A stretch of DNA of 64,000 bases from a virus, in IMG/VR virus record IMGVR_UViG_3300007512_001547, positions 64,001-128,000 of that record, one strand, 5' to 3'. This document shows, piece by piece, positions 1,964 to 17,396 of this stretch; the first letter of the stretch is position 1, and each line of letters begins with the position of its first letter. A model generated the notes under the pieces. It was not told the DNA's origin. It ran no database searches and saw nothing but the letters and a program-made list of their open reading frames with translations. Position numbers and translations under genes: made by a program.

Positions 1964-2152
1964 ATGGACAAAATTGAAATTACTTGTACAAATAATGGCA
2001 AAACTAAAACTGCAGACATACTATTTCGTAGTGATAAACATCTAAAAGTAGCCATTGAGGGTACTCAAATAACAATTGAGATGCATCGACTAGACGTAAA
2101 TAAACCGTATATAGGGCATACAGCAGGATTAGAGTTTACATATGGCAACTGA
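1964..2152 (+). CDS. hypothetical protein (62 aa)
   Basis: ORF tightly packed between its neighbours; no recognisable motif. Confidence 0.6.
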   Translation: MDKIEITCTNNGKTKTADILFRSDKHLKVAIEGTQITIEMHRLDVNKPYIGHTAGLEFTYGN

Positions 2153-2621
2153 AAAATTAAAATTTAAATTAGAACTATACGCAACAATGTGGGATAAGCC
2201 ACCAATTGCTGATATAAAAATTAATGAGAAGAGTCATTTCAAAGAAGAAATCACAGGTACTAACGATAAACCAACTATTATAGAATTTGAGCACGAATTT
2301 GAAGAAAATAAATCATATAATTTTATCATAGACAGATTAGGTAAAGATAAAAAACAAACAATAGTTGAAGATGGAAAAATTGTTAAAGATCAACTATTAC
2401 ATATAAAATCTATAGAAATTGACGAAATTGAGCTTGGTTCATTAATATACGAAGGTGTATATAAACCTAACTATCCAGAACCATGGGCATCACAACAAGC
2501 AGAAGCAGGCAACAAACTACCAGAAACTCTTAAAAATGTTACCCAAATGGGTCATAACGGTACCTGGACATTCTCATTTACTTCACCCTTTTATATGTGG
2601 CTATTAGAAAACCTTTACTAA
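2142..2621 (+). CDS. hypothetical protein (159 aa)
   Basis: ORF in operon-like packing; no motif recognised. Confidence 0.7.
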   Translation: MATEKLKFKLELYATMWDKPPIADIKINEKSHFKEEITGTNDKPTIIEFEHEFEENKSYNFIIDRLGKDKKQTIVEDGKIVKDQLLHIKSIEIDEIELGSLIYEGVYKPNYPEPWASQQAEAGNKLPETLKNVTQMGHNGTWTFSFTSPFYMWLLENLY

Positions 2622-2634
2622 TAAATATGCTTAT

Positions 2635-2991
2635 ATGAGAGCAAATCAATTCATAACAGAAGCACAAGATTCAGACGCAATAAACGAGTTAGACTTGTTT
2701 ATTATGAACGATGAAGATTTATATCGTAGACGTTTTATGCCTATTATAACAAATATTAAAAGAAAAATGAAAAGAGGCATATACGATCACGAAAAAGTAA
2801 TTAAATTATGGATGTATCTTGTTGATGATGCCGCAAGACAATACGTACAAGAATTTGGCACACCTGACCAAGATGTTAAAGATATGTTTCCTAAAGAAAC
2901 TAGACTGCAAGTTGCTCAAATAATTGCAAATAGAGAAAAAGAAAATATAGAACAAGGCGAATACGATGCACCTAAGGGAATTGTTTCTTAA
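2635..2991 (+). CDS. putative head-internal protein (CTS-like N-terminus MRANQFITE)
   Basis: TAAATA at 2622-2627 lies 7 nt upstream of the ATG, and the N-terminus resembles T4 internal-protein leaders. Confidence 0.55.
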   Translation: MRANQFITEAQDSDAINELDLFIMNDEDLYRRRFMPIITNIKRKMKRGIYDHEKVIKLWMYLVDDAARQYVQEFGTPDQDVKDMFPKETRLQVAQIIANREKENIEQGEYDAPKGIVS

Positions 2992-4138
2992 GGAGGATGA
3001 CAGGTCCACAGCCGTCTTTGCATTTGGCCGATTCAATCCTCCCACAATAGGACACCAAAAATTAATAGAAAAAGTACAGTCAATGGCTAGACAAGTCAAT
3101 GGCAAAGGATATCTATTTTTAACACATACACAAAACAATAAAAAAGATCCATTAACGTTTCAAGAGAAACAAGCATACATTACAAGTCAAGTAAATGATC
3201 CTAATTTGCAAATTGGAAGTGCAGATGTAAAAACAATTATTCAAGCATTACAAAAAATAGAAGCACAAGGTAGAACAAGAGTAATAATGGTTGCTGGTGA
3301 TGATCGTGTAATGGAATTCCAAAAATTTTTAAATCAATATAACGGCAATCCAGATAAGCAAGGTAACATTCCTTATAAATTTGATGACGTCCAAGTAGTC
3401 AGTGCTGGACAAAGAGATCCAGACGCAGATGACATAGCAGGTGTTTCAGCATCTAAGGCAAGAGAGTTGGCACTAAAAGGTCAGGAACATGAATTTTCTA
3501 AAATAGTAATGGGCGGTGATGCTGGTAAAGTACTATACGATAAAATACAAGACGCACTTGGAGTCCAGGTTGCTGAAAACAACAAAAAGTTGTATAATGA
3601 AGATATGGACGGTAAACCAATAGTATATATTGACATGGATGGCGTTTTGGCTGACTTCTTTGGTGGTGTTGAAAAAATGTATGGCGTACAACACTGGAAA
3701 GAATTAAGTTCAGACAAAACTAAAGATTTAAAACAAGAAGTTATTAATAGAATATCAGGCACAGATTTTTTTGCAACACTTCCTAAATTTGATAGTGCTG
3801 GTGAATTAATATCAATGGTTAAAGAGTTTACTGGTGGAAACTTTTCAATTAACACATCTCCTTTAAGAGGTGACAATGAAAACTCTACCAAATACAAAAA
3901 ATTATGGATACAAAATAACATTGAACAACCAGATGAAATTGTAATAACAGGACGTAAAGAAAGTTATGCAAAAGACAAAGCATCTGGTACACCAAATATT
4001 TTAATAGACGACAGGCCAGTTAATATTGAACGTTGGCAGGGAGCGGGAGGTTATGGAATTTTATATCAAGCAAATAGAGATTCACTAACTAAAGTAAAAC
4101 AAGCACTTGACCAATATGGTAAATCAGATCAATCATAG
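2966..4138 (+). CDS. HxGH cytidylyltransferase-like domain fused to HAD 5'(3')-deoxyribonucleotidase
   Basis: FGRFNPPTIGHQKL (HxGH-type) and VAGDDR in the N-half. YIDMDGVLADF and LIDDR (HAD motifs I and IV) in the C-half. Confidence 0.8.
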   Translation: MHLRELFLKEDDRSTAVFAFGRFNPPTIGHQKLIEKVQSMARQVNGKGYLFLTHTQNNKKDPLTFQEKQAYITSQVNDPNLQIGSADVKTIIQALQKIEAQGRTRVIMVAGDDRVMEFQKFLNQYNGNPDKQGNIPYKFDDVQVVSAGQRDPDADDIAGVSASKARELALKGQEHEFSKIVMGGDAGKVLYDKIQDALGVQVAENNKKLYNEDMDGKPIVYIDMDGVLADFFGGVEKMYGVQHWKELSSDKTKDLKQEVINRISGTDFFATLPKFDSAGELISMVKEFTGGNFSINTSPLRGDNENSTKYKKLWIQNNIEQPDEIVITGRKESYAKDKASGTPNILIDDRPVNIERWQGAGGYGILYQANRDSLTKVKQALDQYGKSDQS

Positions 4139-4781
4139 ATATCTTCACTTTGGACCAGTAATAGGTGGCACAAAATGTAATACTGATCTCTGTAAAGAAC
4201 TATTAAATCGTGGTCATAAAACAACTAGATCACACGTTAAAAATCTTGCAGGTCATATGAAAAAGGAAAATATCTTCGAAGACCTAGATAAGAAATGGTT
4301 TGTTGATAATTTTCAAAACTATTTTATTCCTTATTTTAAAAAATTACAAGACAAATCAGATCCCAATTACTATTATGGTATGGATCCTTTTAAAGAAATA
4401 TGGCTCGCAACATTATGGATTAATTTTATGAAAAAGGGAGAATATAATCCTCCACATAATCATACTGGAGACTTTTCATTTGTTTTATACTTGCAAGTTC
4501 CAGAAGAATTAAAAAAAGAAGATCAAGCATTTGAAGGACGAGGTAGTGGACCTGGAACAATAAGTTTTATATATGGAGAAGAACAAAAAGGTATTAGCAC
4601 TGGTCATGGAATACTCCCTACTATAAATGATTTATGGATATTTCATTCATCATTAAAACATACTGTACCACCATTTAGATCAGATGTAGAACGTATTTCT
4701 GTTTCAGGAAATTGGTATATTACAGATCATATAAAAGATAAAAGCAAAGAACTAGAATTTGGAAAAATTTTAATTAAATAA
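4107..4781 (+). CDS. 2OG-Fe(II) oxygenase
   Basis: PPHNHTGDFSFVLYL, a distal His (HTVPP) and R-x-S (RISVSGN). Confidence 0.75.
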   Translation: MTNMVNQINHRYLHFGPVIGGTKCNTDLCKELLNRGHKTTRSHVKNLAGHMKKENIFEDLDKKWFVDNFQNYFIPYFKKLQDKSDPNYYYGMDPFKEIWLATLWINFMKKGEYNPPHNHTGDFSFVLYLQVPEELKKEDQAFEGRGSGPGTISFIYGEEQKGISTGHGILPTINDLWIFHSSLKHTVPPFRSDVERISVSGNWYITDHIKDKSKELEFGKILIK

Positions 4782-4793
4782 CAAAAAGGAAAT

Positions 4794-4973
4794 ATGGCAA
4801 AATTCAGCGGGATCAATAGAGCATACACAACAGGTGAAATACCAAAAACACCACAAGAAAAACAAAGAGAGTTAGATAAAAAAATGCAAGAGTTTTTAGC
4901 CAAAGGCGGCAAAGTAGAAAAATTAAAAGATCATAAGCCTACCAAAGAACAATTAAGATCATGGAAGATTTAG
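4794..4973 (+). CDS. 59-aa protein with SutA-like (RNAP-binding helix) motif; not in supplied ORF track
   Basis: ATG at 4794 after an AAGGA SD. Translates to MAKFSGINRAYTTGEIPKTPQEKQRELDKKMQEFLAKGGKVEKLKDHKPTKEQLRSWKI and fills the gap exactly. Confidence 0.7.
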   Translation: MAKFSGINRAYTTGEIPKTPQEKQRELDKKMQEFLAKGGKVEKLKDHKPTKEQLRSWKI

Positions 4974-5167
4974 AACGTTTAAAAAAATTAGCAGGCATTG
5001 AGAATTTACCTGTAGAAGATTCAATGGGAGAAAACCTTTCTCTTCATGGAACAAAAAAAGCAGAATATCAAAGAAAACATAATGTCCGTCCTGGAACAGA
5101 AGAATGGTTTAAACTGTGGTTTGCTAGACCCAAACTAACAGGTGAGAACCCAATGCCAAAAAAATAA
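4961..5167 (+). CDS. hypothetical protein with RLKKLAGI motif
   Basis: Overlaps the stop of the previous ORF. The LAG[IL] motif is shared with ORFs at 12830 and 13673. Confidence 0.65.
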   Translation: MEDLERLKKLAGIENLPVEDSMGENLSLHGTKKAEYQRKHNVRPGTEEWFKLWFARPKLTGENPMPKK

Positions 5168-5197
5168 TACCTAAATTTTACAAATTAAATACTGGCA

Positions 5198-6289
5198 ATG
5201 TTTGATGTTAAACAAAACAAAGCAATATGTATTTTACCATGGGTCCATGAGTTTAAAAATATAACTGGACAATCTGCTCCTTGTTGCCATGCACAAAAAT
5301 ACAAAAATAACCAAACCATAGATTATGTAAGAGACTCTATGTTGAAGGGCATACAACCTGATGTATGTAGTAATTGTTACAAAAGTGAAAAAGAATCAAA
5401 TTGGAGTCATAGAATAAGAGAAACCAACGATTGGATTAAAAAATTTGGTACTCCAGACATAGATAATCCAAAAATACAATTTGCAGATATTAGATACAAT
5501 CCAACTTGTAATTTAAAATGTAAAACTTGTAATGCAGAAGAAAGCACTTTATGGGCAAAAGAAAAAGGCATAAAAATTTCTATAAATGAAGAAAATCAAA
5601 ATTATATCCATACATTAGATAAAAAAATACTTAAAAAAGTTTACCTTGCAGGAGGAGAACCCACTTTTATAAAAGACTATTTAGAATTTTTAAATGCTTT
5701 ACATCTTGTTAATCCTTTTTGTGAAGTAATTATTAACACAAATCTAAAAAGACTGCCTGCTCCATGGAAAGAAATAATTAAAAAATTTGAAAATTTAACA
5801 ATAATTTGTTCTTGTGATGCTGTTGGTATACTTGGTACATATGTACGTTATCCTTTAGGTTGGGATGAATTTGAACAAAACGTTAAATTTGTAAGTGAGA
5901 ATGCAAACTTTCTACAATTTAATTTAGTTGCAAGTAATTTAACTTCTCACAAATTATACGAAACTTGCTCATGGATGAAGCAATATTCAAATCATATTAA
6001 TATATCTATTTTAAATGAACCCGAAATTTTTTTAGAATGTAGTGTACCATTGGAATACAGAGAAACATACATTAATAATATTAAAAAACTATTAAAATTT
6101 CCTGTATCTGTTTATTATGCTTCACAATTCAGAAGTGAAATAAACTATCTAATCAAAAAATACTCGACAGCGAAATATGTAAAATCATCACATAATGCGT
6201 TAAAAGACGAAATTACTGAACAAGATTCGCATAGACACTTAAAACTAATAGACGTTGATCCATTTTTACACTCTTGGATATTTCAATAA
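5198..6289 (+). CDS. Twitch/SPASM-domain radical SAM protein (paralog 1)
   Basis: N-terminal CILPW..PCC..CSNC, then CNLKCKTC and AGGEP. Confidence 0.88.
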   Translation: MFDVKQNKAICILPWVHEFKNITGQSAPCCHAQKYKNNQTIDYVRDSMLKGIQPDVCSNCYKSEKESNWSHRIRETNDWIKKFGTPDIDNPKIQFADIRYNPTCNLKCKTCNAEESTLWAKEKGIKISINEENQNYIHTLDKKILKKVYLAGGEPTFIKDYLEFLNALHLVNPFCEVIINTNLKRLPAPWKEIIKKFENLTIICSCDAVGILGTYVRYPLGWDEFEQNVKFVSENANFLQFNLVASNLTSHKLYETCSWMKQYSNHINISILNEPEIFLECSVPLEYRETYINNIKKLLKFPVSVYYASQFRSEINYLIKKYSTAKYVKSSHNALKDEITEQDSHRHLKLIDVDPFLHSWIFQ

Positions 6290-6299
6290 ATATTCATAT

Positions 6300-6908
6300 A
6301 TGCGAATAAATGAAATCCTAGAAGGTCCACACGATCCTTTTAGACATAAAGCAATATTTTTTGCTGGCTCTCCTGGTGCAGGTAAAACATATGTTGCTAG
6401 AAAATTAGCAGGTGTATTCCAAGGATTAAAACAAGTAAACATGGACACTTGGTTTAAACGTCTCATGACAAAGAAAAACTTATCATGGAAAATGCCTCCT
6501 GAAGAGGAACCTGAACGAGAAAAACAAAGACAAAGATCAAAAGAATTAGTTGCTAAACAACAACAATTACACACCGAAAGTGGATTAGGTTTGCTAATAG
6601 ATTCTACAGGTAGAGTATATGAAACTATTGAAAGAATAAAAAGTGGATTAGAAGATAAAGGATATGAAACAACAATGGTTTTTGTCAACACTGATTTACA
6701 AACTGCTTTACGTAGAAACAAACAAAGAGAACGTCAATTACCTGACGATCTTATACATAAAAATTTTGAAGTTATAGAACAAAATTTAGGAAGATTTCAA
6801 CGTTTGTTTAATGACGTACATATTATTAATAATTCTGATGATGAACAAGACACAATGCCTGAACAAATAGTACAAGTTGAAAAAGACATTAGAAAATTTT
6901 TGCAATGA
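6300..6908 (+). CDS. P-loop kinase (AAA_33/zeta-toxin-like) with CTS-like N-terminus
   Basis: Walker A GSPGAGKT, LLIDST and ALRRNKQR lid. Start placed at MRINEILEG (6300) behind TAAATA 6287-6292. Confidence 0.75.
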   Translation: MRINEILEGPHDPFRHKAIFFAGSPGAGKTYVARKLAGVFQGLKQVNMDTWFKRLMTKKNLSWKMPPEEEPEREKQRQRSKELVAKQQQLHTESGLGLLIDSTGRVYETIERIKSGLEDKGYETTMVFVNTDLQTALRRNKQRERQLPDDLIHKNFEVIEQNLGRFQRLFNDVHIINNSDDEQDTMPEQIVQVEKDIRKFLQ

Positions 6909-7162
6909 AAATACTTAGAATTATATTATGGCCTTTTAAGATGTTGTCAAACATATTATCTGCAAATTACTGGGCAAACAAAATAGCCGATAAAACCAAT
7001 ATGCATGAAAAGGTACAAGGTAGTAGATTTAATAGATGGCAGAATAGTCTACCTCAACCATATAGATTTATATTCAAAACATCTATGTTGATAATATGTA
7101 TCTACCTTATTGAGATGTATTTTAATCTAGTAGGTATGTCAATGTTGCCATGGAGATGGTAG
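6905..7162 (+). CDS. hypothetical membrane protein
   Basis: Hydrophobic C-terminal segment; ATGA overlap with the upstream stop. Confidence 0.6.
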   Translation: MKILRIILWPFKMLSNILSANYWANKIADKTNMHEKVQGSRFNRWQNSLPQPYRFIFKTSMLIICIYLIEMYFNLVGMSMLPWRW

Positions 7163-7543
7163 ATGAAAAAACTATTATTAACTTTATTTTTTATATTATT
7201 TACTTTTCCAATATATGCAAAAGAACACTTACAATTGTTAATGGCACACAATCCAGGTTGTAATATTTGTCAAAATTTTATTAACGAAGTAGCAGTAGAC
7301 TATAACGATACTGAACAATCAAGGTATCTTCCATTAGTCATAATTAATGTATATAAACAACCTGAATGGTTTAAAGAAGCATATGCTGAAAACAGAATTA
7401 AACATATTAGAGGAACACCAACATTTATTATATGGAATGGTAAAAAAGAGTTATCAAGACTTACTGGTTATAGAGACAAAGGCGATTTTATGATAAGAAT
7501 TAACATTTTTATTGAGGAACACAAATTAGATTATGAGAATTAA
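7163..7543 (+). CDS. exported thioredoxin-like protein (SoxS-like)
   Basis: Signal-peptide-like N-terminus, CNIC CxxC motif, RGTPTFI cis-Pro loop and RLTGY. Confidence 0.7.
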   Translation: MKKLLLTLFFILFTFPIYAKEHLQLLMAHNPGCNICQNFINEVAVDYNDTEQSRYLPLVIINVYKQPEWFKEAYAENRIKHIRGTPTFIIWNGKKELSRLTGYRDKGDFMIRINIFIEEHKLDYEN

Positions 7544-8180
7544 TGAAATTATAGGTGAATGGCTGATAATGCCCCAATCAATTAAACCTATGGGTTTAAT
7601 TAGAAAACCTGGTGGGGGTTTTGACTTTAAAAATAAAGGCAACAACAGAGCCAACGAAAAAGCACCTCCTGGCAGAGAAAAACAAGTTAAAGCATTAAAA
7701 GGCAAGGTTGATAATCCATATGCAGTTGCTTGGGCTTCTTATAACAAAAGCAAAAATAAAACTAATGAAGCACCGATAGAACAAGATCATAACAATCCTA
7801 TAGCAAAACCATATGTTGATATGCCAGAATGGAAAGCATTACACGATATGGATGACAAAATTATTGACGCATACATTAAACACAAACAAGTAAAAGAAGA
7901 GGTAGATCAATTTGCACCAGCAAGAGCATTAGGTGAAGCTCAATCTTCTTTAATGCATGGATTACAAATGGCTCAAAATATAATTAAAAAAGATTATAAA
8001 TTGGCAGAAGTTCAAGCCAAAGTCATTGCAGAAAATTGGCCACCTTTGATTGATAAAATTCAAAACATATACAAAAAAGAAGATGCCGCCGGTGTTGGTA
8101 TTATTACCAAACAAAACACCACTAAAGACGTCAAACCTGGCGACGAATATAAGAACGTAAAAAAATTACACCTTAGATAA
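7533..8180 (+). CDS. modular putative head-internal protein
   Basis: MRINEIIGE leader and short modules separated by xxE junctions. Confidence 0.55.
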   Translation: MRINEIIGEWLIMPQSIKPMGLIRKPGGGFDFKNKGNNRANEKAPPGREKQVKALKGKVDNPYAVAWASYNKSKNKTNEAPIEQDHNNPIAKPYVDMPEWKALHDMDDKIIDAYIKHKQVKEEVDQFAPARALGEAQSSLMHGLQMAQNIIKKDYKLAEVQAKVIAENWPPLIDKIQNIYKKEDAAGVGIITKQNTTKDVKPGDEYKNVKKLHLR

Positions 8181-8202
8181 TACAAATAATTACTTTATAC
8201 GT

Positions 8203-8946
8203 ATGATACACCTTAGAAGTTTTGGTAATAATGACGATCCTGTTATGGGAGCAGGAAACTCAACTTGGGACGCTAATTCAGGTTTACGGAAAAAAATAAT
8301 GTTTGAAAATATATCTAAGTTGCCTTACGACTTTAATAATAAAAAAATTTTAACAATAGCAGGAGGAGTAGGCAGAAATGCCGATACTCTTAGAAACTTA
8401 GGTGCAAAAGTAACAAATTCTGATTTAGGTCAACTTTGCGTTAATATTGGAAAAAGATATTACCCTAAAATTAATCATATTGTTTATGACCTGCGTAATG
8501 ATCCTTTGGAAGGATTTGACTATGTTGTATGGGAACAAATATGGACTAGAGCATATGATTTTAAAACATGGGAACATATGTATAAGTGGAAAAATTTTGC
8601 AAGAATTATTCCAAATCCGATACGATTAAAAATTTTTAAATTTAATAGTGATTACATAGATAAGACTTATTATCAACCTGAAAAAATTGGTAATGATTAT
8701 ATTAAAAGACAATTTGGTGATGGAATTTGTAATGTTAAAATGGAAACTGATATAATTGAAGATTTAATTGAAGAAGATATTGAAATTGATCTATTCAATC
8801 TGAACATTAATATACCAAAGGTGTCAAGTCATAGGTATCAAATTTTAGGTTTTAAGACAGAGCTTATTTCTAACAGAATAAATGGAATTTTTATATCCAA
8901 TGGTATAAGATTAAAATTTGAAAACGGAAAAATCAAAAAAATATGA
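8203..8946 (+). CDS. class I SAM-dependent methyltransferase-like protein
   Basis: ILTIAGGVGRN glycine loop, VTNSD acidic strand 2, YDL and FDYVV. Confidence 0.55.
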   Translation: MIHLRSFGNNDDPVMGAGNSTWDANSGLRKKIMFENISKLPYDFNNKKILTIAGGVGRNADTLRNLGAKVTNSDLGQLCVNIGKRYYPKINHIVYDLRNDPLEGFDYVVWEQIWTRAYDFKTWEHMYKWKNFARIIPNPIRLKIFKFNSDYIDKTYYQPEKIGNDYIKRQFGDGICNVKMETDIIEDLIEEDIEIDLFNLNINIPKVSSHRYQILGFKTELISNRINGIFISNGIRLKFENGKIKKI

Positions 8947-9815
8947 GTTATATATTAGGTATTGGTTTACTATATAAAAAGTATAAAAAAAATGCAACAA
9001 TTAGAATTTATATAAACAATAATTTAATTGAAACATATCAATTAACACAAGACATCAATCATATAGAAATACCCACAAGTATAATAAAAAGTTTTATGAA
9101 AAAACTCAAACGGTTTAACCATAATTCTCTCTCCATTCCTGATCTAATTCAAATTAAATGTAAAATTCCAAAATTTTTAAAATTAATTGAAATTGAAGAA
9201 GAAAAACTTACTGGAGAAGTTAGAATTGAAGTTGACAATGATGATAGTAATTATACTAATGGATTTATGTCAAAGTCATCACTAATAGAACCAAATTTTT
9301 TTATACTTTGTCCAAAAGAACTTTTAAAAAACAATGGGCAGTTTTTTTTCGAATTCCAAGAAAACCTATACAAAAAATTAGTATCTAAGATTGAAAAAGA
9401 TAAGGATTTTTCGATCCGGAGCGAAAAACCCAGACTGGAGTGGCCAATACCTCAATTTTTTGATATTGTTTTAGATAGAAACAATAAAATTAATAAAATT
9501 AAAAAAGATTGTGAAAAACAAGAACTTTGGTATCAACGTAATGGGGCATATAAGGATAATCAGAAAAATTATAACTTTCCAAGAACAAAATGGATAGATC
9601 TTTTTAAAAAACGTGGTACTTTAGCTGACCCTTATGTTTTACCATATTTTACACAATATCCACAATATATTGGAGGATCATTTCATATAACATTTAACAT
9701 TAACAAAAAGAATAAAATATATTTTCTAGACGCATATAATGTAACTAGTGGAAACCCTACAGTTTCTATGCAAACCTTTTCGTTTGCCCACTACTTTTCC
9801 CATAAATATAAGTAA
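8943..9815 (+). CDS. hypothetical protein (290 aa)
   Basis: Long ORF coupled (ATGA) to the methyltransferase; K/I/N-rich. Confidence 0.7.
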   Translation: MSYILGIGLLYKKYKKNATIRIYINNNLIETYQLTQDINHIEIPTSIIKSFMKKLKRFNHNSLSIPDLIQIKCKIPKFLKLIEIEEEKLTGEVRIEVDNDDSNYTNGFMSKSSLIEPNFFILCPKELLKNNGQFFFEFQENLYKKLVSKIEKDKDFSIRSEKPRLEWPIPQFFDIVLDRNNKINKIKKDCEKQELWYQRNGAYKDNQKNYNFPRTKWIDLFKKRGTLADPYVLPYFTQYPQYIGGSFHITFNINKKNKIYFLDAYNVTSGNPTVSMQTFSFAHYFSHKYK

Positions 9816-10102
9816 TGAAAATTACAGAAATTATAATACATAAACGAATAGGTGAACAAGCAACTGCAGGTGCTACATCAAGCGGCAATATAGCAACAGT
9901 TACATCACCACACGTTGCAATAGGCAAGGATAGAGGTAATAAATCCTATATAGGATCACCAGGACGTTCAGGCACAAAAGCACCAAAACTACCTAAAATA
10001 GTACAAAAGAAAAATAAAGACGGTACAGCTAAACCATGGCATGAATTAGGAAAAGGTACTAGTATGTTTGGTGGGCCTGTACAACGGAGACCATATCCAT
10101 AA
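9815..10102 (+). CDS. putative head-internal protein (MKITEII leader, ATAGATSSGNIA module)
   Basis: TAAATA at 9803-9808, 6 nt upstream; CTS-like start. Confidence 0.55.
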   Translation: MKITEIIIHKRIGEQATAGATSSGNIATVTSPHVAIGKDRGNKSYIGSPGRSGTKAPKLPKIVQKKNKDGTAKPWHELGKGTSMFGGPVQRRPYP

Positions 10103-10248
10103 TGGAACTAAAAAAATGCAAGAACTGTGGTGGTGATTCACACTGCGAAACTAGAGCTACAAGAACGGAACATAGGTATCCATCTGAAGGCGGCGAAGAA
10201 TATGAAATAGAAGTATGCCGTGAATGTAGATGCGACACTTGTAAATAA
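10102..10248 (+). CDS. 48-aa Cys-rich (Zn-binding-like) protein; not in supplied ORF track
   Basis: MELKKCKNCGGDSHCETRATRTEHRYPSEGGEEYEIEVCRECRCDTCK; TAATG coupling to the upstream gene; fills the gap. Confidence 0.6.
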   Translation: MELKKCKNCGGDSHCETRATRTEHRYPSEGGEEYEIEVCRECRCDTCK

Positions 10249-10256
10249 ATACTACT

Positions 10257-10676
10257 ATGAAAGCACAAGAATTTATTCAAGAAGGCGCATCAATGTTACC
10301 TTACTTTAAAAAAGATGAAAAAACTTGGTCTTTTCCAGATGCTTGGGCAAAAGACGAAGCATTAGACACACCTTATATGAGTAATATGAGTATGCGTCAG
10401 TTTTTAGACACACTAGGATATGACAGTGATTTTGAAAGTGCAAGTCCAGTAGATGCAAAAGAATTTATAGGACGTACTACACAATGGTTACAAAAAAATA
10501 TTGATAAACCATCACAAGAAATTCCAACAACAGTTGATAGATCCGGAGGCGGTGCTACAATGATAGGTGGCGGAAAACCAGAAGGTTGGGATAATAGACA
10601 AGTAAAACATCATAACGAATTAGCAAGAAAAATTTTAGCAAAATATCCAGAAGTAACACATTTTGGATTTAATTAA
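10257..10676 (+). CDS. putative head-internal protein (MKAQEFIQE leader)
   Basis: Leader closely resembles the T4 IPIII CTS MKTYQEFIAE; TAAATA at 10246-10251. Confidence 0.6.
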   Translation: MKAQEFIQEGASMLPYFKKDEKTWSFPDAWAKDEALDTPYMSNMSMRQFLDTLGYDSDFESASPVDAKEFIGRTTQWLQKNIDKPSQEIPTTVDRSGGGATMIGGGKPEGWDNRQVKHHNELARKILAKYPEVTHFGFN

Positions 10677-10677
10677 T

Positions 10678-12804
10678 ATGAAATATAACGAATTTAATAA
10701 CCCTAGAGAAAAACCACAAGTTAGACCAGTAACAACCATGACGTCAAAAGAGCTTGGTGATAGAATAGAAAAAGCAAGAGCAAAAAATTATAAAAAACCT
10801 GAACCATTGGACTTTACAAAATTATGGAGTAAAGAAAAACCAGCAGTAGAAGCAGGTGTAACACCAGGCGGAACAAAAGTTGATTATGCCAATATAATGT
10901 TTCGTGGTAAAGAAATAGATCATAATAGTATAGAATATGAAATGCAGGATTTTAGTGATATGATTTATGAGCTACATGGAGCAAAATATATAGATGGTAC
11001 ACCTTTAACTGATGAAGAATTACAAGAACTTGAAAGGACAGACGAATTTACTGACTGGGTTAGTATGGATTATGCATCATCTGGACCAGATGCGCCAGAC
11101 GATTATCCATTTGAAGAAGACGGTATGACATCTGCTGATGTTGATCGAATAAGAAACCAAAAGTTTACTACCAACCAAATTAAACAGGCTTATCGTGTTT
11201 TAAATCATCCAAGAGTTAAAGGTGGCAATTATACAGCCGCTTATAATATTATTAATAGAATTGCTCCTGGTCTAGCAGATCACCCAGATGTTGCAAACGC
11301 ATTAAGAAGAGCAAATGAAATGAAAGAAGATATAACAACAATGGCATCAAGAGTAATCAGAAATTATGCTAGAGAGATTGGTCCGGATTCCATGGACTAT
11401 GGTATGTTTATGACATCAGCAGAACTATTAGACAAAGGTATGCTGAAATCATTAGCACAACTTATAGATAAGTCAGATACCGCTCCAAGAGAATACGTAA
11501 TGAAAAAAATAGCGGATCATGATCCAGAGACATTTAAAAAAATGTATGGTGACCAAGAGGGTTATCTTTCTGTAATGAAACCAGCACAAGATTTAAAAGA
11601 TGCTGACTACAATAACTCTTTACAAAATAAATTAGATAAAGCTATGCAAGAATACGACTCACCAGAAAAGAAAGCAGAACGTGATGCATTAATGAAAAAG
11701 TATCTTGCTAAAGGTGGAAAAGTTGAAAAAGTACCAACAGGAAAAACTGCATACAAAGGAAAAGAATTAAAACCACAATATAAAAAAGATAATGGAACAC
11801 CAATTACAAGTCCAATGAGCGACGAATCAGTGCAAGAAGACATTTCAGAAAAAGGCAGAATTGCTTTAGAAAAAGCAGGATTTGATCCAAATGCAATTCA
11901 TGAGTATATGGCAGTGTTCAATGACCACGGTGATACTTCAGAGTTAGAAGACATGAACGAAGTTAAAATTGGAGTAGCAGATGCTATGGCCATGGTGTTA
12001 GCATCTCACGATGCTGGAGATATGTATCCAAAAAGTCCATATAGTAGTGATCCAAAATATAGAAGTAAAGAATCAGTTGAAGAATCATCTATCAAACCTT
12101 ATGTGTCAATGTATAAAGGTGATGATGGAAAAACTGTATATGACGTACTAGACAAAGACGGTAAATCAGCATACAAAACAAAAGATGAAAGATTAGCACA
12201 GCATTACTTCAAAAAAAATTATCAAAAATTAAAAGAAGACGGCGCTCCATTTGGTTCAGGCATGGAACTTTTAAGAATGGCAATTATGAGAAAGTTTATT
12301 ACTGTTCAAGAATGGGATTTATTAAAACACAAATGGAAAGAAGCGGCCGCTGAAGTTGAACAACAATATAGTGATTGGCCAGAAGGCGAAGGTTTTGGAT
12401 CATCAGATCACAACTTTGCAATTAGAGATTTAATGACTGCTGTTGGATATGAATTTGATGACCAAGATACAAGTGGTAGATTTGTTGTTACAAAACAACC
12501 AGAAGAAATAGAAAAAGCAGGTATTAAAAATGTTAGAATGCAAGGTGAACCTGTTGCAACAGAAGGTGGTATGCCTGCTTCAATTATTAAACATAAACAA
12601 AAACTTGCACATATGTCTGATGAAGAATTAGCAGATAGATTTAAAGATTTTGATGAACAAAGATTAAGACAAATGGCTTGGAGACACGGATATGGTAAAA
12701 TGAGTTCTCATTACTTGGACAGAGTTAGAAACCATATGACTAGCAAAAGAACTGGAACATACGAATCAAAACTTGCTAATATGTTAAATCAACGTCTTAA
12801 ATAA
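10678..12804 (+). CDS. large modular acidic protein, probable processed head-internal polyprotein; contains SutA-like module
   Basis: MKYNEF leader, many hydrophobic-x-E junctions, and ERDALMKKYLAKGGKVEKV at about 11665-11740. Confidence 0.6.
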   Translation: MKYNEFNNPREKPQVRPVTTMTSKELGDRIEKARAKNYKKPEPLDFTKLWSKEKPAVEAGVTPGGTKVDYANIMFRGKEIDHNSIEYEMQDFSDMIYELHGAKYIDGTPLTDEELQELERTDEFTDWVSMDYASSGPDAPDDYPFEEDGMTSADVDRIRNQKFTTNQIKQAYRVLNHPRVKGGNYTAAYNIINRIAPGLADHPDVANALRRANEMKEDITTMASRVIRNYAREIGPDSMDYGMFMTSAELLDKGMLKSLAQLIDKSDTAPREYVMKKIADHDPETFKKMYGDQEGYLSVMKPAQDLKDADYNNSLQNKLDKAMQEYDSPEKKAERDALMKKYLAKGGKVEKVPTGKTAYKGKELKPQYKKDNGTPITSPMSDESVQEDISEKGRIALEKAGFDPNAIHEYMAVFNDHGDTSELEDMNEVKIGVADAMAMVLASHDAGDMYPKSPYSSDPKYRSKESVEESSIKPYVSMYKGDDGKTVYDVLDKDGKSAYKTKDERLAQHYFKKNYQKLKEDGAPFGSGMELLRMAIMRKFITVQEWDLLKHKWKEAAAEVEQQYSDWPEGEGFGSSDHNFAIRDLMTAVGYEFDDQDTSGRFVVTKQPEEIEKAGIKNVRMQGEPVATEGGMPASIIKHKQKLAHMSDEELADRFKDFDEQRLRQMAWRHGYGKMSSHYLDRVRNHMTSKRTGTYESKLANMLNQRLK

Positions 12805-12816
12805 AACTACAACAAA

Positions 12817-12824
12817 TATAAATA
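12817..12824 (+). promoter_or_regulatory. T4-type late promoter TATAAATA
   Basis: Exact T4 late consensus, 5 nt upstream of ATG 12830. Confidence 0.65.
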
Positions 12825-12829
12825 CTTAG

Positions 12830-13663
12830 ATGGCACATAATAAATCCGAAGATAATAGTTTTAGAGACCTGGTTGCTCGTTTAAACGCAATGAGTAACAT
12901 GACTCCTGAGCAAGAACGTGCATCTCTAATGGAATCAGTTGGCAAGGCACCAAAAGTACTAGACGACAAAGACATTTCATTAGCAGATATTGCCAAATTA
13001 GCAGGTATTAAAGAATATGTTGAACCTGTAAAAGTTTCTAAAAAAGCACAAAAACTAGTTGAGGAAATTACTAAAGAACCAAAAGTAGAATCAAGCATAG
13101 CTAAAGCAATAGCAGAGTCTGACGCTGATGATTCAATATCAACAAACATTAAAAAAGCAGTAACAGAAGAAAGCAATAGATTAGATAAAATTACTGAACT
13201 TGAAGCACAACTAGCAGAATTAAAAGCAGAACAAAAAGAAGAACAAACATATGATAGTAAAGCATTTAGAGACGTTATCTCAACAGATATCGCAGAATAT
13301 ATTAAAAACGCAGAAGAATCTCAACTTGTTGAATTATACAACACTTTCTCAGACAATGAAGCAATTTACAATGAAGAACAAAAAAGCATTCTTGTCAAAA
13401 CTCCAGAAACTACAGAAATAATTGCAGACGCAGAAAAAGCAGAAGCACCTGAAGAAGATGAAGTTGTTCAAGAAAAAGAACCAGAAGAAAGATCAGTAGA
13501 CTTAGATAAAGAAGTTTTACCAGATCCTGGAACACCATCAGTAGAAACACCTGCTGTAGAAGATGGTGGCGAAGAAGTTGAACTAGATGCTGTTGAACCA
13601 GCAATTGAAGTCCCTCAACAAGATAAATTTACCAACGATTTAGACCCAGTAGAAAAAAAATAA
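12830..13663 (+). CDS. highly acidic coiled-coil protein (scaffold/prohead-core-like)
   Basis: E/D-rich, heptad segment LEAQLAELKAEQ, LAGI motif and a late promoter. Confidence 0.5.
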   Translation: MAHNKSEDNSFRDLVARLNAMSNMTPEQERASLMESVGKAPKVLDDKDISLADIAKLAGIKEYVEPVKVSKKAQKLVEEITKEPKVESSIAKAIAESDADDSISTNIKKAVTEESNRLDKITELEAQLAELKAEQKEEQTYDSKAFRDVISTDIAEYIKNAEESQLVELYNTFSDNEAIYNEEQKSILVKTPETTEIIADAEKAEAPEEDEVVQEKEPEERSVDLDKEVLPDPGTPSVETPAVEDGGEEVELDAVEPAIEVPQQDKFTNDLDPVEKK

Positions 13664-13672
13664 ATACCCTAT

Positions 13673-14503: not shown

Positions 14504-14736
14504 GAACAAAAACAAAATATATTCACGTTAATCAACACAAAATTCGTTCAAATAAAAAACATGGCTTAAATGATCCAGTTATCACAATTAAACAAGGTTC
14601 TAAAAATACTTACTGTCACGAGGTTGCAATATTAGGACCAAGCCAAGTATTATATGGAGGTAATAATAAACCTTTACTTCCTTGTGGTGCTAGAGTTGTT
14701 ATTAAAACAGAAAGTGATGTTGAAATTATTAAATGA
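14500..14736 (+). CDS. hypothetical protein
   Basis: ATGA-coupled on both sides; IHVNQH motif. Confidence 0.7.
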   Translation: MRTKTKYIHVNQHKIRSNKKHGLNDPVITIKQGSKNTYCHEVAILGPSQVLYGGNNKPLLPCGARVVIKTESDVEIIK

Positions 14737-17396
14737 GTTACATAGACGCTCTATATAAAAAAGACGAAGACAAAATTTACGTAGTAGAACGTGATTCTAA
14801 AAAAGGTCGTGTATTTGTAGATTATGATGCTAGGTATGTATTCTATTATCCAGACACAAGAGGCAAACATAAATCCATGACTGGTGAAACATTACAAAAA
14901 GTACAATGTCGTACATCAAAAGAATTCATTAAAGAGCAACGAATAAGGTCTAATAAAACTCTTTATGAACAAGATATCAATCCAGTGTTTAGATGCCTTG
15001 AGGAAAATTATTTAGGTAAAGAAACACCCAAGTTAAACGTACTGTTCTTTGATATCGAAGTGGACTTTGATCCTGAAAAGGGTTATGCCACAACTGATGA
15101 TCCGTTCATGCCCATAACTGCCATAAGTTGTTATATGGAATGGACGGATCAATTAGTTACCCTTGCAATTCCACCAAAAACAATTACAATGCAAGAAGCA
15201 AAAGTACTCACAGAGAGATTTCCTAATACAATGTTATTCGAAAAAGAAAAAGATATGCTTGATGCATTTTTACAATTAGTTGAAGATGCAGATATTTTAT
15301 CAGGTTGGAACTCAGAAGGATATGACATTCCATACACAGTAGGACGAATACAAAAAGTTTTAAGCAGTGATGATACAAGACGTTTATGTTTTTGGGGAGA
15401 AAAACCTAAAAAAAGAGTATTTGAAAAATACGGTAGAGAACATTTAAGTTATGATTTAATTGGCAGAGTACATTTAGATTTATTAGAGTTATATAGAAAA
15501 TACACATATGAAGAACGTCATAGTTTTAGATTAGATGCAATAGGTGAACATGAATTAGGAGAAAAGAAAACTATATATGAAGGATCGTTAGATTCACTTT
15601 ATAAAAATGACTTTGGTTTGTTTATAGAATATAACAGACAAGACACACACTTACTTGCAAAATTAGAAAAGAAATTAAAATTTATAGATTTGGCAAACGA
15701 AATAGCACACCAAAATACTGTATTGCTACAAACTACAATGGGTGCAGTTGCAGTTACAGAACAAGCAATCGTTAACGAAGCACATAGACGTGGCATGATT
15801 GTACCAGGTAGAAAATACAGAGAAAAAGACGCTGAACCAATTACGGCGGCAGGTGCTTATGTGGCAACTCCAAAAAAAGGTATACATGACTGGATAGGAT
15901 CTATTGATATTAACTCACTATATCCATCTGTTATTAGAGCATTGAACATGGGTCCAGAAACTATTGTAGGACAAATAAGACCAGTAATAACATCAGCAGA
16001 AATAAACAGAGCAAAATTACAAAAAAAATCATTTGCGGCGGCTTGGGATAATCAATTTGGCAGTTGGGAATATCAAGCAGTAATGAACAAAGATAAAGGT
16101 ACAGAAATAGTTATAGATTGGGCTGACGGTACTAGTATTAGAATGTCAGCGGCACAACTGTATGATTTAGTATTTGAAAGTAACAACAAATGGATGTTAA
16201 GTGCCAATGGCACAATATTCACATATGAATTTGAAGCAATTATTCCAGGACTACTTAAACGTTGGTATGCTGAACGAAAAGAAATGCAACGTAAAATGCA
16301 ACAGTCTGGAAGTAACGAAATTGAAAGAGCATATTGGGATAAAAGACAATTAGTTAAAAAAATTAATTTAAATAGTTTATATGGAGCACTTTTAAATCCT
16401 GGTTGTAGATTTTTTGATATACGTATAGGACAATCAGTAACATTAACAGGCAGATGCATTACAAAACACATGGCGGCAAAAGTAAATGATATTATTGCAG
16501 GCAAATATAATCATACTGGCGAATCTATAATTTATGGAGATACAGATTCAGTTTATTTTACAGCACATAAAACTTTACAAAATGATATTAACGCAGGTAA
16601 AATTGCTTGGAATAAAGAATCAGTAATTGCATTATATGATAAAATTGCAGAGGAAATGAATACATCTTTTACAGGATTCATGACTAACGCATTTCATTGT
16701 CCACATACACGTGGTTCTGTTATTAGAGCAGGTAGAGAACTTGTAGCAATTAAAGGATTATTCATTACAAAGAAAAGATATGCAGTATTATATTACGACA
16801 TTGAAGGTGAACGTACAGATAACGCAGGTAAAGAAGGCAAAATGAAAGCTATGGGATTAGATTTAAAAAGATCTGATACTCCAATATTTGTACAAGATTT
16901 TTTAAGTGATATATTATATATGGTATTAACAGGTAAAACAGAAAAACAAGTATTAAACAGGATTGGCGAATTTAGATCAGAATTTAAAGCAAGACCTGGT
17001 TGGGAAAAAGGATCTCCAAAAAGAGCAAATAATGTTACAAAATATACCGACGAAGAAAAGAAAAAAGGCAAAGCAAATATGCCAGGACACGTAAGAGCAA
17101 GTATGAACTGGAACAACTGTAAACAAATGTATGGTGACAAGTATTCTTTACCTATATTAGATGGTGCAAAAGTTATTGTATGTAAACTTAAAAACAATCC
17201 ATTAAACTATACAAGTATTGCATATCCTACAGATGAATTACGTATTCCAGAATGGTTTAAAGAACTACCTTTTGATTCTGAAGCTATGGAACAAACAATA
17301 TTAAATCAAAAGATAGACAACCTAATAGGTGTATTAAATTGGGACGTACAAAGTACTGAAACCAGTAATACATTCAACAAACTGTTTGAATTCTAA
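14733..17396 (+). CDS. gp43: family B DNA polymerase (T4 gp43-like)
   Basis: ExoI FDIEVD, ExoII GWNSEGYD, motif A DINSLYPS, motif B KINLNSLYG and motif C YGDTDS. Confidence 0.97.
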   Translation: MSYIDALYKKDEDKIYVVERDSKKGRVFVDYDARYVFYYPDTRGKHKSMTGETLQKVQCRTSKEFIKEQRIRSNKTLYEQDINPVFRCLEENYLGKETPKLNVLFFDIEVDFDPEKGYATTDDPFMPITAISCYMEWTDQLVTLAIPPKTITMQEAKVLTERFPNTMLFEKEKDMLDAFLQLVEDADILSGWNSEGYDIPYTVGRIQKVLSSDDTRRLCFWGEKPKKRVFEKYGREHLSYDLIGRVHLDLLELYRKYTYEERHSFRLDAIGEHELGEKKTIYEGSLDSLYKNDFGLFIEYNRQDTHLLAKLEKKLKFIDLANEIAHQNTVLLQTTMGAVAVTEQAIVNEAHRRGMIVPGRKYREKDAEPITAAGAYVATPKKGIHDWIGSIDINSLYPSVIRALNMGPETIVGQIRPVITSAEINRAKLQKKSFAAAWDNQFGSWEYQAVMNKDKGTEIVIDWADGTSIRMSAAQLYDLVFESNNKWMLSANGTIFTYEFEAIIPGLLKRWYAERKEMQRKMQQSGSNEIERAYWDKRQLVKKINLNSLYGALLNPGCRFFDIRIGQSVTLTGRCITKHMAAKVNDIIAGKYNHTGESIIYGDTDSVYFTAHKTLQNDINAGKIAWNKESVIALYDKIAEEMNTSFTGFMTNAFHCPHTRGSVIRAGRELVAIKGLFITKKRYAVLYYDIEGERTDNAGKEGKMKAMGLDLKRSDTPIFVQDFLSDILYMVLTGKTEKQVLNRIGEFRSEFKARPGWEKGSPKRANNVTKYTDEEKKKGKANMPGHVRASMNWNNCKQMYGDKYSLPILDGAKVIVCKLKNNPLNYTSIAYPTDELRIPEWFKELPFDSEAMEQTILNQKIDNLIGVLNWDVQSTETSNTFNKLFEF

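Follow-up and report, generated by a model that had tools for sequence, protein, structure and literature searches.

SutA is so far known as a regulator of the Pseudomonadales and Alteromonadales, and it is described as lacking homology to other polymerase-binding proteins (PMC9300723). Its RNA polymerase-binding domain (RBD) comprises residues 57-90 (You et al., PMC9300723), and alanine or bulky substitutions have demonstrated that L67, M71, F74, L75, V81, I84, K60, R64, G78 and G79 are needed for binding to the protrusion of the beta subunit (PMC9300723). K60 and R64 are located near S59 and E73 of beta, and the protrusion gains a strand from residues 81-84 (PMC9300723). Activation requires the acidic N-terminal domain and the wedge loop (PMC9300723; 10.1101/423384); this N-terminal domain, which must be joined to the RBD, directs the wedge loop into the gap that separates the protrusion from the lobe (PMC9300723). 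[quoted passage not shown] SutA is moreover specific, as it does not bind the polymerase of E. coli (10.1101/423384). A match to its docking motif is therefore no guarantee of binding to the polymerase of a given host.

The viral locus compared here with SutA lies in a stretch of 64,000 nucleotides (the window), which corresponds to bases 64001-128000 of a 137,583-bp IMG/VR record with a CheckV completeness of 29%. The GC content of this phage DNA is about 31%. The B-family DNA polymerase encoded at 14733-17396 has its nearest relatives in two T4-like jumbo phages with genomes of about 470-490 kb, Phosso of Sinorhizobium (50.6%) and Atu_ph07 of Agrobacterium (45.5%). At least eight studies of seawater have yielded metagenomes that contain near-identical DNA. 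The source is an abundant, uncultured marine T4-like jumbo phage. An alphaproteobacterial host is only suggested, on the basis of these polymerase relatives and of the 31% GC. Neither a gene for an RNA polymerase beta subunit nor a tRNA gene was found in the window or in the record, which represents about 29% of the genome. The record carries many radical-SAM genes, and a full-length dnaK gene was also observed (G000:C1:565-2454), whose product is 66% identical to enterobacterial DnaK.

The earlier note had described a 59-aa open reading frame resembling the RNA polymerase-binding helix of SutA. This frame, designated ORF59, is present on the plus strand with the sequence that was quoted, and its likeness to SutA goes beyond chance, as judged by the Pfam model PF20661. 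It is separated from the preceding gene by 12 nt. The features of the locus are collected in Table 1.

Table 1. Features of the ORF59 locus and of the mosaic gene located downstream, in window coordinates.
Feature	Position	Strand	Evidence or remark
TAAATA box, overlapping the stop of the preceding gene, 14 nt before ORF59	4775-4780	+	read from sequence
Shine-Dalgarno-like AAGGA, 3 nt 5' of the ORF59 ATG	4786-4790	+	read from sequence
ORF59 ('mini-SutA', RNAP-binding domain only), 59-aa basic protein	4794-4973	+	conserved family, dN/dS 0.075, PF20661 E 4.1e-6
SutA-RBD-like core, ORF59 aa 20-45: amphipathic helix, Gly-Gly, short strand	4851-4928	+	Pfam match, interface residues, co-fold contacts
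Conserved C-terminal tail of ORF59, aa 46-59	4929-4970	+	alignment; contacts in co-fold
ORF68, small gene, 13-nt overlap with the end of ORF59	4961-5167	+	beside ORF59 in 22 of 52 loci; no family match
Mosaic 713-aa ORF with T4 capsid-targeting-like N-terminus	10663-12804	+	mosaics of relatives, leader count
First hydrophobic-x-Glu-Asp/Gly site, after E152	11110-11121	+	others after E222, E392, E525, E634
Embedded SutA-RBD-like cassette, aa 318-392, ending at a V-Q-E site followed by D	11614-11838	+	24.9 bits alone; near-invariant

The exact ORF59 protein has already been predicted by gene callers on 15 contigs, and a word-indexed search matched it to about 157 protein clusters, mostly from ocean metagenomes. 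Among the 120 clusters listed, nearly all members are 59 aa long and 73-100% identical, this length being fixed in more than 100 clusters. Conservation spans the whole protein, beyond the SutA-like core, and in the tail K48, P49, K51, Q53 and W57 are invariant among close relatives. ORF59 is carried by 49 IMG/VR viral contigs of 6-307 kb. Pairwise comparison of 29 orthologues gave a median dN/dS of 0.075, with synonymous sites saturated in half of the pairs. Taken together, these comparisons show ORF59 to be a real gene of a viral family. Metatranscriptome contigs of relatives at 90-95% identity cover parts of the region, including 4902-5163, in libraries of RNA that may also hold DNA.

The gene order of the window (S8 peptidase, nucleotidyltransferase-nucleotidase, ORF59, ORF68) is conserved in 22 of 52 loci and the remaining 30 present differing contexts; ORF59 has thus come to be distributed over several lineages of marine phages. 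A 2OG-Fe(II)-oxygenase-like gene (4107-4781) situated before ORF59 is an insertion that most relatives lack, being present in only 4 of the 52 loci; in a metatranscriptome library, a relative is represented by a contig on which position 4084 is connected straight to 4809. The N-terminal part of ORF68 contains a K-L-A-G-I/L string, seen as well in the mosaic modules of relatives, and then a P-V-E site followed by D. On another ORF59-bearing contig (L033), a dnaK gene is located a few kb from the ORF59 homologue.

Among 185,579 species genomes, ORF59 was detected on three contigs only (NHCU01000066.1, NHDJ01000027.1 and PAOW01000003.1), of 8-16 kb, in metagenome-assembled genomes binned as Betaproteobacteria, Verrucomicrobia and an archaeon. 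Host copies of the gene were considered for NHCU01000066.1 and NHDJ01000027.1 and rejected: these two contigs, the ones with full-length copies, share the neighbouring genes of the phage, and the taxa assigned to the three contigs are incongruent. The two are probably phage DNA placed in the wrong bins. No match was obtained in 50,697 phage records, either by megablast with 10 kb or by tblastn with ORF59 and with the embedded cassette, and a relative exceeding the Pfam cut-off gave weak matches only among cultured phages.

Together with the one that precedes ORF59, the first 15 kb contain eleven TAAATA boxes on the plus strand (2097-13666), all located upstream of a start codon and eight of them within 6-14 nt of it. 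Such spacing would produce late transcripts that are nearly leaderless; alternatively, the box may belong to the signal for translation initiation. A single copy of the T4 late-promoter octamer TATAAATA is present in the 64 kb, compared with 15.0 +/- 3.7 in shuffled sequences. This sole copy (12817-12824) ends 6 nt before the start, at 12830, of the gene for an acidic 277-aa protein, and its strong avoidance elsewhere is as expected if the octamer is a working signal.

The link between ORF59 and SutA was evaluated with profiles. PF20661, the 35-position Pfam model of the SutA RBD, matches residues 20-45 of ORF59 with an E-value of 4.1e-6. At 26.5 bits this match falls short of the gathering cut-off of 29.3 bits, as do those of the 713-aa protein (19.5 bits, E 6.2e-4), of its cassette taken alone (24.9 bits, E 1.3e-5) and of a relative's version of the cassette (26.6 bits); ORF59 and the 713-aa protein are the only matches to the model in the 137.6-kb record. 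A profile built from 16 members of the ORF59 family was then run against 1.84 billion representative proteins and retrieved 84 of them at an E-value of 1e-3 or better, almost all small, marine and sharing the same core. When 35 clean and broadly sampled relatives were compared with PF20661, 31 matched at an E-value of 0.01 or better. Six relatives recognized by the ORF59 profile (E 1.5e-4 to 1e-10) exceed the Pfam cut-off, with 41.8, 35.8, 34.1, 31.7, 31.3 and 31.0 bits, and ORF59 is therefore tied to the PF20661 family through intermediates.

No canonical SutA with its acidic tail is present among the 84 significant matches. With the SutA equivalog model NF041490 of NCBIfam, whose cut-off is 145 bits, ORF59 scores 20.9 bits and the 713-aa protein 15.7, and the match is confined to the RBD. 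In the reciprocal direction, the narrow ORF59 profile recovers the SutA chain 7f0r_G from the PDB at rank three with an E-value of 0.055, and is outscored there by an unrelated chain, that of CaBP4. The string given in the earlier note as the SutA core proved to be correct, since it is exactly the one that aligns in 7f0r_G. The matching segment is about 25 residues long, rich in Lys and Glu, and the score is driven largely by a short F-L-x-K/R-G-G-K string. A recent capture of a host sutA gene was considered as the origin of ORF59 and rejected, the family being old and canonical SutA being missing from the significant matches. Many such proteins are tagged automatically with PF20661 in databases, and one Atlas cluster is named accordingly; our literature search found no paper describing SutA-like proteins of phages.

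A further comparison is provided by the residues of SutA validated by mutation. In an ungapped alignment anchored on the F-L pair, SutA L67, M71, F74 and L75 correspond to ORF59 L27, M31, F34 and L35, and SutA G78, G79, V81 and I84 to G38, G39, V41 and L44. Eight of the ten interface residues are thus kept, namely the six hydrophobic ones and both glycines. The polar contacts K60 and R64 are lost, being replaced by P20 and Q24, and the latter is kept in 26 of 35 relatives. Across these 35 diverse proteins F34, G38 and G39 are invariant, L35 and M31 are found in 34 and 32 of them, respectively, and position 41 is occupied by Val or Ile throughout. Position 27 is more variable (Leu in 15, Arg in 14). 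The embedded copy likewise has Arg at the equivalent of L67, and the same face of its helix carries a Leu three residues downstream.

A structural prediction was then obtained for ORF59 with an alphaproteobacterial beta subunit. Residues 1-600 of Pelagibacter ubique RpoB (RPOB_PELUB) were used as a stand-in for the subunit of the host. The complex was predicted with an ipSAE of 0.65, the best of three controls being 0.00; the mark applied is reached by 58 of the 80 complexes of known structure and by 2 of the 110 mismatched pairs, counts that are only approximate here, where our own alignment was supplied. The runs share at least 81% of their contacts and the pLDDT of the partner is at least 68. 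RpoB residues 57-61, 63, 70, 72, 94-133, 143, 402 and 498-517 contact residues 19-34, 40-47 and 49-59 of ORF59. In particular, ORF59 41-47 pairs with RpoB 122-128, Q24 touches RpoB 57, 61 and 72, and residues 46-47, 49, 53 and 56-59 of the tail touch RpoB 498-517. The helix and the added strand of ORF59 are therefore predicted to be seated on the beta protrusion as they are in SutA. Since the SutA complexes 7F0R, 7XL3 and 7XL4 are already solved, this result may be one of recall. Judging by the numbering and by a location close to where the first beta1 segment ends, RpoB 122-128 is probably the same edge strand as the one used by Mfd and CarD.

The second copy of the motif, which the earlier note had placed inside a large protein, is indeed found at residues 335-357 of the 713-aa ORF (11665-11733), and the PF20661 match itself covers residues 342-363 (11686-11751). 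A likelier ATG of this ORF is located at 10678 and gives a protein of 708 aa. ORF59 and the embedded copy share a run of nine residues whose codons differ at nearly every synonymous site able to differ. The peptide has therefore been kept by selection at the protein level, and no recent duplication of DNA is involved. The cassette, about 75 aa long, is nearly identical in relatives that are 39% identical overall, and these relatives are mosaics of shuffled modules. In the closest genome, neither of the two corresponding proteins has the cassette, and the other modules are rearranged. The AlphaFold2 model of the 713-aa protein (mean pLDDT 45.8) is too poor for a fold search; it contains a helix for the motif at 334-349 followed by a low-confidence stretch at 351-395, as expected of a docking peptide.

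The motif was also observed twice in a 426-aa protein (P0141), after FG-GAP repeats in a 289-aa protein (P0201), inside a giant protein of 3415 aa (P0197) and after a leader and a P-loop segment in a 106-aa protein (P0130). The N-terminal part of P0130 has no match to the leader-bearing ORF at 7533 of the window beyond the leader itself, and this seemingly leader-bearing protein with an ORF59-like end may reflect either a true fusion or an error of gene calling. From the arrangements encountered, the docking motif appears to be a portable module, which occurs alone, duplicated or fused to unrelated domains.

The reading favoured here, to which a probability of about 60% is given, is that ORF59 belongs to a viral family reduced to the SutA RBD, which would dock on the beta1 domain of the host polymerase and block or tether the enzyme, the cassette tethering further modules that are perhaps delivered in the capsid. 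The helix of ORF59 would occupy the hydrophobic groove on the protrusion of beta (the beta1 domain), and the strand that follows Gly-Gly would pair with the exposed strand of the beta1 sheet. ORF59, without the acidic N-terminal tail and the wedge loop, would probably neither open the lobe nor activate transcription. It would more likely fill the beta1 site and keep host factors off, Mfd and CarD/CdnL, which both use the beta1 edge strand, being the candidates for displacement. The conserved basic C-terminal tail may be positioned near sigma or promoter DNA. The cassette of the 713-aa protein would in the same manner tether the other modules of this protein to the polymerase.

The alternative that survives best, even if it is considered unlikely, is that ORF59 is a general helix-Gly-Gly-strand ligand directed at something other than the polymerase, be it a phage protein, a chaperone or another host machine, and that its likeness to SutA is remote or convergent. 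This possibility is consistent with the score below the Pfam cut-off, with the weak reciprocal match in the PDB, where the CaBP4 chain does better, and with the conserved N- and C-terminal parts that are proper to the family and missing from SutA. The embedding of the motif in unrelated architectures, such as the FG-GAP protein and the 3415-aa protein, would also suit such a ligand, and the DnaK encoded by the phage provides a conceivable chaperone target. However, the intermediate relatives do exceed the Pfam cut-off, the conserved positions are exactly those of the validated SutA interface, and the co-fold adopts the binding mode of SutA with controls at 0.00. These three observations argue against such a ligand.

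The place of the 713-aa protein in such a docking system can be considered in the light of phage T4. The internal proteins of T4 and Alt carry a capsid-targeting sequence and are cut by the gp21 prohead protease after Leu/Ile-x-Glu, and Alt is a packaged protein that acts on the host polymerase. In the mosaic ORF, a leader of the T4 capsid-targeting type, M-K-Y-N-E-F, starts at 10678. Leaders of this type are found in 7 of 170 ORFs, six of the seven being grouped within 2635-12804 of the window. The presence of hydrophobic-x-Glu sites, which is all that was scored, is also in excess in the 713-aa protein (5 versus 0.77 in shuffles, p 0.0006), at a density ten times the genome average. These sites coincide with the borders of the shuffled modules, and one of them ends the cassette. 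No match to a prohead protease (Peptidase_S77) was detected in the 137.6-kb record, about 29% of the genome.

The leader and the sites at module borders make it plausible that the 713-aa protein is delivered in the capsid: it may enter the head, be processed by the prohead protease and reach the cell together with the DNA. The fuller scenario, in which a packed polyprotein cut into its modules, each flanked by sites for the prohead protease, would seize the host polymerase before phage transcription, the leaderless ORF59 supplying the anchor within the cell, is judged to be quite improbable.

The earlier note had gone further and proposed that the phage encodes SutA mimics, one standalone and one embedded in a putative injected cargo, which would retune the polymerase of slow-growing cells. 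The two modules of the SutA-RBD type did stand up to analysis, whereas the retuning did not, in view of the missing acidic N-terminal tail and of the net basic charge. Only 19 residues precede the core of ORF59, a single one of them being acidic, and the whole protein contains 15 Lys/Arg versus 8 Asp/Glu, a net charge of about +7. With this short N-terminus and this charge, ORF59 is not considered a functional mimic of SutA and is read as a polymerase-docking or blocking module. The activating acidic tail is missing from both copies, which would more likely occupy or tether the host polymerase than boost it.

A true mimic would activate the promoters of rRNA and housekeeping genes when the host grows slowly, and a neighbouring acidic protein might provide the acidic part in trans. 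The docking module common to SutA and ORF59 is in line with this possibility, as are the very acidic 277-aa protein encoded after the 713-aa gene and a protein with a Glu-rich tail that, in Stenotrophomonas phage AXL3, is encoded just before a 60-aa gene of SutA-RBD type. It is nevertheless very improbable, since the N-terminal domain of SutA must be joined to the RBD, the N-terminus of ORF59 is short and non-acidic in a net basic protein, and the synteny of the ORF59 loci reveals no link with an acidic partner.

The case of AXL3 deserves a description of its own. In this cultured phage (vB_SmaS-AXL_3, MT536174.2), one protein of the pair AXL3_62/AXL3_61 (L071:1100-1644) ends in a run of about 30 Glu. 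It is directly followed, in another frame, by a 60-aa protein that scores 25.8 bits with the SutA RBD. The pair looks like the acidic tail and the docking domain of SutA, either encoded separately or connected through a frameshift.

The small size of ORF59 and the absence of a significant tblastn match in cultured phage genomes might suggest a frame that is open by chance, or the decaying remains of a gene, in either case devoid of function. This reading has a negligible probability given the dN/dS of 0.075 over saturated synonymous divergence, a length fixed at 59 aa in more than 100 clusters, and a ribosome-binding site with tight operon spacing.

With a polymerase-docking family as the preferred reading, the SutA docking peptide becomes a widespread mobile module of marine phages, free or fused and devoid of the activating tail. 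If binding is confirmed, the beta protrusion would be a recurrent viral target and the docking peptide a portable polymerase tag of 25 residues, and a concrete test would be available of whether phages displace Mfd or CarD/CdnL. In the scenario of the packed polyprotein, an anchor that uses the beta1 edge strand would evict Mfd and CarD/CdnL as well. Such a packaged polymerase anchor, if real, would constitute a route of host shut-off not yet described.

Compared with known systems, ORF59 is closest to SutA of P. aeruginosa, with which it shares the docking segment made of helix, Gly-Gly and strand and, by prediction, the seat on the beta protrusion. The two differ in that ORF59 has neither the wedge loop of SutA nor its acidic N-terminal domain (about 55 residues), and in that the tail of ORF59 (aa 46-59) has no counterpart in SutA by sequence. 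SutA is moreover a protein of the Pseudomonadales and Alteromonadales, whereas ORF59 is viral, with its own conserved C-terminal tail and a second, embedded copy. The PFL_1563 family (NCBIfam NF058628, a 51-aa profile) also matches residues 18-43 of ORF59 (E 2e-4) and the 713-aa protein. It is bacterial, however, the score of ORF59 is 20.8 bits versus a cut-off of 60, and we know of no tested function for this family. The RNA polymerase-interacting domains (RID, Pfam PF02559) of Mfd (TRCF) and of CarD/CdnL bind by strand addition to beta1, as ORF59 does in the co-fold, but they have a Tudor-like fold whereas ORF59 contributes a short peptide. As for the internal proteins of T4 and Alt, a similar leader is found on the 713-aa protein and on five neighbouring genes and is missing from ORF59 itself; Alt modifies the polymerase enzymatically, whereas the 713-aa cargo would instead dock on it.
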